Shown in pieces: positions 6,433 through 56,727 of a DNA stretch of 64,000 bases; positions within the stretch are counted from its first letter, which is position 1; the number at the start of each line of letters is the position of its first letter. The DNA is from Podarcis vaucheri (taxonomy: Eukaryota). The translations under genes were made by a program, and so were the position numbers. The stretch is from the NCBI GenBank assembly GCA_965113315.1, contig OZ220368.1, one strand, 5' to 3'. The notes beneath the pieces were generated by a model. That model worked only from the letters and a program-made list of their open reading frames with translations, was not told the origin of the DNA and ran no database searches.

Positions 6433-9078
6433 CACATATTTTGTACATTTTCTTTTCCATTTGTTGGTCACAATCCACACCTCTTCCTTCAAAGTGTAGC
6501 AGAGAACAGATAAATGTTTCATGCCCACCACCCCACAGCTGCTGCAACCCATTGTTTCTAACAAAATACAGTACGTAGTCCTTTTCCAAATGGTTCATTC
6601 ATTGCTATTGTGATACTGGGTTGAGGAAGCACATCACAAGTTCTTGTTGGATACTGTGTATCAGATCATTAGGACCCCTCCAGACTGGTGAGGTTTTTTG
6701 CAGGTGAATTCTGCAACGTCTCACTGATGGAATATTAGTACATTGGTAGTGGCTTTAAAGCAACATGATTAAGCAGTAAATACAGTGGTTGTTGTTGTTT
6801 AGTCGTTTAGTCGTGTCCGACTCTTCGTGACCCCATGGACCAGAGCACGCCAGGCACTTCTGTCCTCCACTGCCTCCCGCAGTTTGATCAAACTCATGCT
6901 GGTAGCTTCAAGAACACCATCCAACCATCTCATTCTCTGTCGTCCCCTTCTCCTTGTGCCCTCCACCTTTCCCAACATCAGGGTCTTTTCCAGGGAGTCT
7001 TCTCTTCTCATGAGGTGGCCAAAGTATTGGAGCCTCAGCTTCACGATCTGTCCTTCCAGTGAGCGCTCAGGGCTGATTTCCTTCAGAATGGAGAGGTTTG
7101 ATCTTCTTGCAGTCCATGGGACTCTCAAGAGTCTCCTCCAGCACCATAATTCAAAAGCATCAATTCTTCGGCGATCAGCCTTCTTTATGGTCCAGCTCTC
7201 ACTTCCATACATCACTACTGGGAAAACCATGGCTTTTACTATACGGACCTTTGTTGGCAAGGTGATGTCTCTGCTTTTTAAGATGTTGTCTAGGTTTGCC
7301 ATCGCCTTTCTCCCAAGGAGCAGGCGTCTTTTAATTTCGTGACTGCTGTCACCATCTGCACTGATCATGGAGCCCAAGAAAGTAAAATCTCTCACTGCCT
7401 CCATTTCTTCCCCATCTATTTGCCAGGAGGTGATGGGCCCAGTGGCCATGATCTTCGTTTTTTTGATGTTGAGCTTCAGACCATATTTTGCGCTCTCCTC
7501 TTTCACCCTCATTAAAAGGTTCTTTAATTCCTCTTCACTTTCTGCCATCAAGGTTGTGTCATCTGCATATCTGAGGTTGTTGATATTTCTTCCGGCAATC
7601 TTAATTCCGGCTTGGGATTCATCCAGCCCAGCCTTTCGCATGATGAATTCTGCATATAAGTTAAATAAGCAGGGAGACAATATACAGCCTTGCCGTACTC
7701 CTTTCCCAATTTGGAACCAATCAGTTGTTCCATATCCAGTTCTAACTGTAGCTTCTTGTCCCACATAGAGATTTCTCAGGAGACAGATGAGGTGATCAGG
7801 CACTCCCATTTCTTTAAGAACTTGCCATAGTTTGCTGTGGTCAACACAGTCAAAGGCTTTTGCATAGTCCATGAAGAAGAAGTAGATGTCTTTCTGGAAC
7901 TCTCTAGCTTTCTCCATAATCCAGCGCGTGTTTGCAATTTGGTCTCTGGTTCCTCTGCCTCTTCTAAATCCAGCTTGCACTTCTGGGAGTTCTCGGTCCA
8001 CATACTGCTTGAGCCTTCCTTGTAGAATTTTAAGCATAACCTTGCTAGTGTGTGAAATGAGTGCAATTGTGCGGTAGTTGGAGCATTCTTTGGCACTGCC
8101 TTTCTTTGGGATTGGGATGTAGACTGATCTTCTCCAATCCTCTGGCCACTGCTGAGTTTTCCAAACTTGCTGGCATATTGAGTGTAGCACCTTAACAGCA
8201 TCATCTTTTAAAATTTTAAACAGTTCAGCTGGAATACCATCACTTCCACTGGCCTTGTTATTTGCAGTGCTTTCTAAGGCCCATTTGACTTCACTCTCCA
8301 GGATGTCTGGCTCAAGGTCAGCAACCACACTACTTGGGGTGTACGAGACATCCATATCTTTCTGGTATAATTCCTCTGTGTATTCTTGCCACCTCTTCTT
8401 GATGTCTTCTGCTTCAGTTAGGTCTTTACCACTTTTGTCCTTTATTATGGTAATCTTTGTGCGAAATGTTCCTTTCATATTTCCGATTTTCTTGAACAGA
8501 TCTCTGGTTCTTCCCATTCTGTTGCTTTCCTCTATTTCTTTGCATTGCTCGTTTAAGAAGGCCTTCTTGTCTCTCCTTGCTATTCTTTGGAAATCTGCAT
8601 TCAATTTCTTGTATCTTTCATTATCTCCCTCGCATTTTGCTTGCCTTCTCTCCCCCGCTATTTGTAAGGCCTCGTTGGACAGTCACTTTGCTTTCTTGCA
8701 TTTCTTTTTCATTGGGATGGTTTTAGTTGCTGCCTCCTGTATAATGTTGCGAGCCTCCACCCATAGTTCTTCAGGCACTCTGTCCAGCAAATCTAAATCC
8801 TTAAACCTGTTCCTCACTTCCACTGTGTATTCATAAGGGATTTGGTTTAGATTGTATCTTACCTGTCCAGTGGTTTTTCCTACTTTCTTCAGTTTAAGCT
8901 TGAATTTTGCTATAAGAAGCTGATGATCTGAGCCACAGTCAGCTCCAGGTCTTGTTTTTGCAGACTGTATAGAGCTTCTCCATCTTTGGCTGCAGAGAAT
9001 ATAATCAATCTGATTTCGATGTTGCCCATCTGGGGATGTCCATGTGTAGAGTCGTCTCTTGTGTTGTTGGAAAAGCGT

Positions 9079-9116
9079 GTATCTGAAGAAGTGTGCATGC
9101 ACATGAAAGCTCATAC
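9079..9116 (+). ncRNA. Minimal type I hammerhead ribozyme motif
   Basis: Helix I GTAT/ATAC (9079-9082/9113-9116); CTGAAGA (9083-9089) plus an extra A; helix II GTGTG-CATG-CACAT (9091-9104); GAAA (9105-9108); palindromic AGCT as helix III; predicted cut after C9112. Confidence 0.8.
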
Positions 9117-9168
9117 CAAGAACTAACTTAGTTGGTCTTTAAGGTGCTACTGGAAGGAATTTTTTTAT
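9081..9168 (+). mobile_element. 88-nt Penelope-like insert nested in the BovB ORF
   Basis: 14-bp TSD TTGGAAAAGCGTGT (9067-9080 and 9169-9182). Hammerhead motif followed by TTGGTCTTTAAGGTGCTACTGG and a T-rich end, as recognised from reptile PLE termini. Confidence 0.85.
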
Positions 9169-10117
9169 TTGGAAAAGCGTGTTTGTGATGACCAGCTTGT
9201 TCTCTTGGCAGAACTCTATTAGCCTTTGCCCTGCTTCGTTTTGATCTCCAAGGCCAAACTTGCCAGCTGTTCCTTTTATCTCTTGACTCCCTACTTTAGC
9301 ATTCCAATCCCCTATAATGAGCAGAACATCCTTCTTTGGTGTCACTTCTATAAGGTCTTGTAAGTCTTCATAGAATTGGTCAATTTCAGTTTCTTCAGCA
9401 CCAGTAGTTGGTGCATAAACTTGGATTATTGTGATGTTAAAAGGTCTGCCTTGGATTCGTATCGAGATCATTCTATCATTTTTGAGACTGCATCCCAGTA
9501 CAGCTTTCGCCACTCTTTTGTTGACTATGAGGGCCACTCCATTTCTTTTACGGGTTTCTTGCCCACAGTAGTAGATATGATAGTCATCCGAACTGAATTC
9601 GCCCATTCCCGTCCATTTTAGCTCACTGATGCCCAGGATGTCAATATTTATTCTCGCCATCTCATTTTTGACCACCTCCAACTTACCCAGGTTCATGGTT
9701 CTTACATTCCAGGTTCCTATGCAATATTTTTCTTTACAGCATTGGACTTTCCTTTCGCTTCCATGCATATCCGCAACTGAGCGTCCTTTCGGCTTTGGCC
9801 CAGCCACTTCATCAGCTCTGGATCTACTTGTACTTGTCCTCCGCTCTTCCCCAGTAGCATGTTGGACGCCTTCCGACCTGAGGGGCTCATCTTCCAGCGT
9901 CATAACTTTTATATGCCTGTTGTCTTTGTCCATGGAGTTTTCTTGGCAGGGATACTGGAGTGGCTTGCCGGTTCCTGCTCCAGGTGGATCACGTTTGGTC
10001 AAAACTCTCCACTATGACCTTTCCATCTTGGGTTCCCTGCTCGGCATAGTTCATAGCTTCTCTGAGTTCTTCAAGCCCCTTCGCCACAGCAAGGCAGTGA
10101 TCCATGAAGGGGAAATA

Positions 10118-55931: not shown

Positions 55932-56727
55932 AGAGAACTGGGCAAAAACAAACAAGATGAATTTTAACAGGGAGAAATGTAAAGTATTGCACTTGGGCAA
56001 AAAAAATGAGAGGCACAAATATGGGTGACACCTGGCTTGAGAACAGTACTTGTGAAAAGGATCTAGGAGTCTTGGTTGACCACAAACTTGACATGAGCCA
56101 ACAGTGTGACGCGGCAGCTAAAAAAAACAATGCAATTCTGGGCTGCATCAATAGGAGTTTAGCATCTAGATCAAGGGAAGTAATAGTGCCACTGTATTCT
56201 GCTCTGGTCAGACTTCACCTGGAGTACTGTGTCCAGTTCTGGGCACCACAGTTCAAGAAGGACACTGACAAACTGGAACGTGTCCAGAGGAGGGCAACCA
56301 AAATGGTCAAAGGCCTGGAAACGATGCCTTATGAGGAACGGCTAAGGGAGCTGGGCATGTTTAGCCTGCAGAAGAGGAGGTTAAGGGGTGATATGATAGC
56401 CATGTTCAAATATATAAAAGGATGTCACATGGAGGAGGGAGAAAGGTTGTTTTCTGCTGCTCCAGAGAAGCGGACACGGAGCAATGGATCCAAACTACAA
56501 GAAAGAAGATTCCACCTAAACATTAGGAAGAACTTCCTGACAGTAAGAGCTGTTCGACAGTGGAATTTGCTGCCAAGGAGTGTGGTGGAGTCTCCTACTT
56601 TGGAGGTCTTTAAGCAGAGGCTTGACAACCATATGTCAGGAGTGCTCTGATGGTGTTTCCTGCTTGGCAGGGGGTTGGACTCGATGGCCCTTGTGGTCTC
56701 TTCCAACTCTATGATTCTACGATTCTA
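55932..56727 (+). mobile_element. Young 5'-truncated CR1 LINE (end of ORF2 plus 3' UTR)
   Basis: ORF 56006-56650 has the canonical CR1 C-terminus ([46 protein letters not shown]). Terminal ATGATTCT-type repeats at 56711-56727. Confidence 0.96.

Follow-up and report, generated by a model that had tools for sequence, protein, structure and literature searches.

The window analyzed here is a stretch of 64,000 nt from Podarcis vaucheri (contig OZ220368.1, assembly GCA_965113315.1). Its minus strand carries a near-full-length LINE with a single ORF (6799..10011), which encodes an APE endonuclease and an RT in ORFs 9139-10011 and 6799-8682 and which we take to belong to the RTE/BovB group. The endonuclease of this LINE (PF03372, E 6.5e-10) was found upstream of an 88-nt insert at 9081-9168, framed by a 14-nt target site duplication (TSD), TTGGAAAAGCGTGT. 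The left copy of the TSD occupies 9067..9080 and the right copy 9169..9182; they are 102 nt apart, and this 14-mer is present just twice in the window.

The insert belongs to a plus-strand copy of the pLTR/5' leader of a Penelope-like element (PLE), located at 9077..9170 and corresponding to element positions +2..+95. Herein, +1 is the A of TTTCAGTG at L116:4282 in the parent element described below, and the window position equals 9075 + n. Only 9081-9168 can be assigned to the element unambiguously. The last 4 nt of the left TSD, GTGT (9077-9080), are identical to element positions +2..+5, and TT at the right junction (9169-9170) is common to the target and the element. The preliminary description of this DNA had interpreted target bases GT as completing helix I of a ribozyme. 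This interpretation was abandoned because GTGT at 9077-9080 is the parent's own sequence, TTTCAGTGTATC, and hence represents junction microhomology. Two other features named there, an AACTAA-C-TTAGTT palindrome (9121..9133) and a T-rich end (9160..9170), were both found on the plus strand and are both pLTR-derived. The T-rich stretch lies just 5' of the element ATG (+101), at the upstream cluster of 3' ends (about +90..+98), and is a putative priming site.

A minimal type-I hammerhead motif occupies 9079..9116 on the plus strand, with the predicted cut after C9112 (+37). Helix I is formed by GTAT (9079-9082) and ATAC (9113-9116). The core CTGAAGA (9083-9089) is followed by a bulged A (9090), a 5-bp helix II of GTGTG (9091-9095) and CACAT (9100-9104), and GAAA-GC-TC (9105-9112). 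There is no real helix III, and a palindromic AGCU is found in its place. At 9079 a minimal hammerhead is thus complete, with the core CUGANGA / GAAA / UH, both helices (I and II), and the bulged base. The published descriptor for such motifs (PMC4209133) matched a single site in the 64-kb window, 9079-9116, against a background of 0.01 matches per random window (100 order-1 Markov sequences of matched composition). Together with the TSD spacing, this match bears out the initial report of an 88-nt insert with a TSD and a minimal hammerhead in a LINE endonuclease domain. An Rfam scan of the insert gave no hammerhead match, which is uninformative because the motif has no helix III.

In the window copy, a C to T change at 9104 replaces G10.1-C11.1, the first pair of helix II, with G-U; this is the sole difference between the window copy and the pLTR of L118. 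The hammerhead is nearly invariant among copies (identical in 55 of 74), and no compensatory change was seen. Unconstrained folding of the whole insert did not form the hammerhead, and the stability was within that of shuffled sequences (z -1.3 to +1.1); when the 38-nt motif was folded by itself, helices I and II formed at about -5 kcal/mol. One minimal hammerhead of a similar kind is described as inactive in vitro (PMC4209133). The hammerhead of the window copy is likely inactive as a monomer, and in this copy it is a passenger.

The frame of the host ORF is retained across the insert, with a new TAA at 9139-9141. Both observations had been made before; as another stop (TGA 8683-8685) interrupts the host ORF, the retained frame is of no consequence. 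Frame retention is also expected for one in three insertions by chance, and it was therefore rejected as meaningful. The host LINE is itself young, being nearly intact, with one stop besides that of the insert. Elsewhere in the window, a 229-aa open stretch (55961-56650) resembles the 3' end of ORF2 from a CR1-type LINE.

The insert is 95.7% identical to both pLTRs of an intact PLE in the same genome, herein referred to as L116. It corresponds to the last ~94 nt of the pLTR and ends 5 nt 5' of the ATG. Six of the first 30 loci matching the insert run upstream into a shared sequence that ends a GIY-YIG ORF, and L116 was located by a search with the GIY-YIG domain from such upstream-running copies. 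It has the structure of a pLTR-ORF-pLTR partial tandem, seen as a direct repeat with a period of 3019. The open 910-aa ORF (L116:4382-7111) encodes RVT_1 (PF00078, E 3e-12) and GIY-YIG (PF01541, E 3e-5) domains. Around the leader, TATATAG lies at -30 and the ATG at +101, with the hammerhead between them at +4..+41. The features of EN+ PLEs that were examined are all found here: an RT with GIY-YIG at the C terminus in a single ORF, a pLTR tandem, and the optional tail and inverted 5' copy. The intact tandem (L116:2833-7400; G000:C25:3430832-3435399) has repeats that are 99.8% identical and is located inside an L1/Tx1-like LINE. Judged by its sequence, L116 is a candidate recently active element. 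A second open frame, of 880 aa, was found at C33:28929379.

The L116 protein, inspected by eye, contains a CNKPRCQLC linker before the EN domain and a CQQC ... H ... H motif within it. According to PMC8557442, the Neptune clade is characterized by a CX2-5CxxC linker before EN together with a CCHH motif, the linker being described as absent in Penelope/Poseidon. On these domain motifs the parent PLE appears Neptune-like. Its leader is abundant in the genome: the insert matches many copies at 97-100%, and one internal 25-mer (+59..+83) has 12,519 exact matches genome-wide. Loci L172, L180, L143, and L156 represent older or sister subfamilies that have the same hammerhead and are diverged upstream of +4 and downstream of +42. 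The window insert is the leader stub of a young PLE, a known element class with a known ribozyme.

The ends of copies were analyzed for the first 100 listed matches of the 25-mer (contig C1, 0-5.67 Mb), mapped on L116. This sample includes 101 anchor-bearing copies in 70 insertions; it represents one chromosome region and is conditioned on the exact +59..+83 25-mer. Copies from the initial similarity search, which favoured those matching the query flanks, were kept out of the end statistics, and the 'inverted' flag of one listing, confounded by the helix-II palindrome, was kept out of the counts. The 70 insertions comprise 26 inverted leader-only pairs, 14 single leader-only copies (6 without a tail, like the window copy, and 8 with one), 1 tandem array, and 29 insertions that extend upstream. 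Of 74 clusters, 57 have TSDs, which measure 8-16 nt with a mode of 12-13.

Nearly all 3' ends fall into two clusters, near +95 and near +133: of the 101 copies, 52 end at +81..+102 and 47 at +127..+140, with 2 in the interval. Of the 40 inverted insertions (40 of the 70), 39 have one arm per 3' cluster, which suggests that both target ends are primed, one per site. At the 5' side, 39 of the 76 copies reaching +10 stop at +1..+10 (0.051 per nt), a rate about 17-fold higher than the upstream rate of 0.0025-0.003 per nt; 14 copies stop at +2 and 10 at +4. The preliminary description had proposed plotting the ends of genomic copies as a check for a discrete unit, with a continuous random distribution speaking against one. 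The ends are sharp and shared among the 101 copies, and the 5' peak and the two 3' clusters are unlike such a distribution. Around the cut site (+37), none of the 101 copies has a 5' end at +33..+46. Starts at +38 in 4 inverted arms were considered and rejected, as the reference differs at +37; 3 of these arms pass +38, and the fourth reflects helix-I microhomology.

Exact matches were also counted genome-wide. The sequence +2..+21 was found in 8,628 copies; 6,112 reach +1, 4,599 reach -6, and 3,632 reach -13. Retention is thus 53% from +2..+21 to -6, against 79% over the next 7-nt step. At face value 51% of copies stop at +1..+4, against ~13% expected from divergence and background; such exact-match counts overstate stops, since older subfamilies differ here and 4 of 30 loci with A or C before +4 run upstream. 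At loci L146, L019, L010, and L067 the first 10-50 nt of the element are reiterated at the 5' junction, which fits repeated template jumps at the RNA end.

The 5' edge lies 30-33 nt downstream of the TATA box. A further 2,797 copies have a non-element base before +4, which is G in 1,839 (66%) and A or C in 958. Before +2 it is G in just 160 of 2,516 (6%), and before +1 no G excess was found among 537 copies, most of which have A, though +1 is the best initiator match; a transcript start at +1 was rejected on this ground. The +2 class as a whole (about 3,050 copies stopping at +1/+2) likewise has no G excess and is unexplained by a single capped start. A G before +4 was also found in 10 of 21 tandem junctions, and of the 8 joints into +4 listed for DNA contigs from two other runs, 6 have a lone G from neither side. 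Inspected by eye, roughly a third to half of 30 loci with G before +4 could borrow this G from the adjacent element or target. Other reverse transcriptases are known to copy the cap as an extra G. The TATA spacing and the extra G at +4 thus suggest a capped RNA start.

The 5' edge is not set by hammerhead cleavage. The coincidence of the unit's start with the ribozyme edge most likely reflects the start of the RNA at this point rather than ribozyme cleavage. In four RNA runs, 83-90% of aligned reads run into unlike sequence, coming mostly from copies embedded in host transcripts, and no transcript start was seen directly. Beyond +180 the ORF was covered to a depth under about 10, and element expression in these runs was low. 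A description of a fixed 5' stop or of cap run-off was not found in the literature searched, in which subscription journals and repeat-database notes are thinly covered; supplementary figure 2 of PMC11167929 may bear on this point.

Taken together, the parent, the identity, the TSD, the 3' clusters, the 5' peak, the extra G at +4, and the TATA box make it probable that the insert is a run-off copy of the PLE RNA leader, bounded by a likely capped RNA 5' end and an internal priming site. The pLTR promoter would place the transcript start on the first helix-I base of the hammerhead, and the GIY-YIG/RT protein would cut the target with a 12-14 nt stagger. Reverse transcription would be primed inside the RNA at about +95 or +133 and would run off the likely capped RNA 5' end at +2 to +4. 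The complete cDNA would be short because the template begins just about 95-133 nt upstream. An RNA from about +4 primed at +95 would give a ~92-nt complete cDNA, the window insert, which would be joined to the other target end through 2-4 nt of microhomology (GT/GTGT in the window copy). Priming of both target ends, one per site, would give a head-to-head pair, and longer copies would reflect read-through RNAs in which upstream parts of the element are included. A stub like the window insert is likely a dead end because it has neither the TATA box nor the ORF start.

Related steps are described for the anole element PAc, in which two internal RT start sites bound the tail in vitro, cutting and extension take place on both target strands, and insertion can do without hammerhead cleavage (PMC11167929). 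A back-joint from +193 to +1 (L116:4474 to 4282) was observed in the single-cell RNA runs X21 and X22, with 7 and 12 reads. Its interpretation as an RNA circle was rejected, as similar joints (+189..+191) are present in DNA contigs. Joints near +190 may mark a third, minor priming site.

Several findings could also be read as random 5' truncation of a PLE, with the match to the ribozyme edge being a coincidence or a microhomology hotspot at GT repeats and the GTGTGCATGCACAC palindrome. The 29 upstream-extending insertions have ends scattered from -6 to beyond -1400, ends at +11..+32 are also raised (0.010 per nt), and many junctions contain microhomology. Random truncation is nevertheless unlikely in view of the roughly 17-fold rise in stop rate at +1..+10 and the G excess that is specific to +4; a stalled RT would, moreover, be expected to halt 3' of the helix, not past it. 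Alternatively, the 5' edge might be set by RNA processing, for example by a 3' splice site TTTCAG|TG (+2/+3), instead of by a transcription start. TTTCAG upstream of helix I resembles a splice acceptor, its pyrimidine tract and CAG ending at helix I like the intron of D. virilis Penelope (PMC4209133), an element for which a TATA-less internal promoter and an intron are described (PMC2377424), and the +2 class reads G|TGTATC. No common upstream exon precedes the +2 starts, however, and no intron-type skip was found among those listed in the four RNA runs, in which element expression is low, so that we give this origin of the edge little credence.

The short copies might instead constitute a self-propagating non-autonomous family, SINE-like or retrozyme-like, with an internal promoter or dimeric-hammerhead circles, mobilized by the PLE protein. 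The preliminary description had left the choice between a truncated PLE and a discrete retrozyme-like unit. The PLE origin and sharp common ends hold, and the retrozyme part is not supported: no 5' end among the 101 copies lies at the cut site, the copies match the autonomous pLTR, and 29 of the 70 insertions run upstream. A self-propagating family would fit the 41 leader-only insertions among the 70, the proposed derivation of animal retrozymes from pLTRs (bioRxiv 10.64898/2026.07.22.740005), and two arrays, one with 4.5 head-to-tail units of 101-104 nt and the other with 3 of 88 nt. The former (L102:7940-8404; G000:C1:5631940-5632403) has an intact hammerhead in each unit; the latter is at L134. 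Tandem arrays, previously suggested as a sign of a discrete unit, amount genome-wide to 21 head-to-tail junctions at 16 loci, mostly unlike each other, against 12,519 copies. In addition, the inversion junctions vary by locus, a single base separates the window copy from a long copy of the element, and tailless copies have no ORF start, the part that held the sequence required by PAc in vitro (PMC11167929). Such a family is accordingly very improbable.

Non-LTR retrozymes are recognized by at least 2 consecutive units with a complete hammerhead. The window copy is single, and the L102 array alone fits this formal tandem definition. Amplification independent of the autonomous element was also looked for; the single difference from a long copy and the locus-to-locus variation of junctions speak against it. 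The four RNA runs contain no recurrent unit-length back-joint, in libraries ill-suited to 100-nt circles. The window copy is not classed as a retrozyme, and the tandem arrays in this genome look like one-off template jumps. Retrozymes have been proposed to arise from such tandem structure (bioRxiv 10.64898/2026.07.22.740005). Extending the run-off copying of a capped leader, we tentatively suggest, as a possibility less likely than the reading itself, that the first base of helix I is where the capped transcript begins, so that cleavage would strip off the cap together with ~34 nt of leader and act as a decapping or translation switch. The ~95- and ~133-nt run-offs would then be the main transposition product, and rare template jumps would yield tandems that could found retrozymes, such as the L102 array.

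The stub itself is ordinary, and its usefulness is statistical: across thousands of young copies, two putative priming sites and a likely RNA start are marked within a few bases. The insert is no new ribozyme element and offers a modest, testable mechanistic clue. Two PLE questions become testable in the intact L116: the role of the pLTR hammerhead, and how head-to-head insertions form.

Among known systems, the non-LTR retrozymes described in bioRxiv 10.64898/2026.07.22.740005 are likewise pLTR-derived and small, with a type-I hammerhead. They differ in being, by definition, tandem units each with a hammerhead, whereas the window copy stands alone, with arrays being rare in this genome. The minimal hammerheads of metazoan PLEs (PMC4209133) share the 4-bp helix I, the bulge before helix II, the family G10.1-C11.1 pair, and the palindromic rudiment of helix III, and are described as mostly dispersed single motifs from truncated PLEs, reptiles included. 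Nothing essential distinguishes the motif here, which has a 5-bp helix II and, in the window copy, G-U at 10.1-11.1. PAc (Poseidon_Ac of Anolis carolinensis) is similar in its pLTR hammerhead, in two internal RT starts about 35-40 nt apart that bound the tail, and in insertion ends that, as reported, show no sign of hammerhead cleavage (PMC11167929). It is a member of the Penelope/Poseidon clade; its ATG is within the hammerhead, and its RT start sites lie 111-118 nt into the ORF (PMC11167929). In the parent element here, by contrast, about 60 nt separate the hammerhead from the ATG, which has an end cluster on either side (about -5 and +33). The closest likeness in architecture is to EN+ PLEs, described with a pLTR-ORF-pLTR tandem, an RT plus, at the C terminus, GIY-YIG with CCHH, a CX2-5CxxC linker, a one-sided 30-40 nt tail, an inverted 5' copy, a TSD, and solo pLTR pieces, and, in Adineta Pen2a, a TATA box and an initiator in the pLTR (PMC8557442; PMC3846280). 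The 5' truncation of EN+ PLEs is described without a fixed stop, while the element analyzed here has a stop at +1..+4 in about 40-50% of its copies, frequently accompanied by an extra G.
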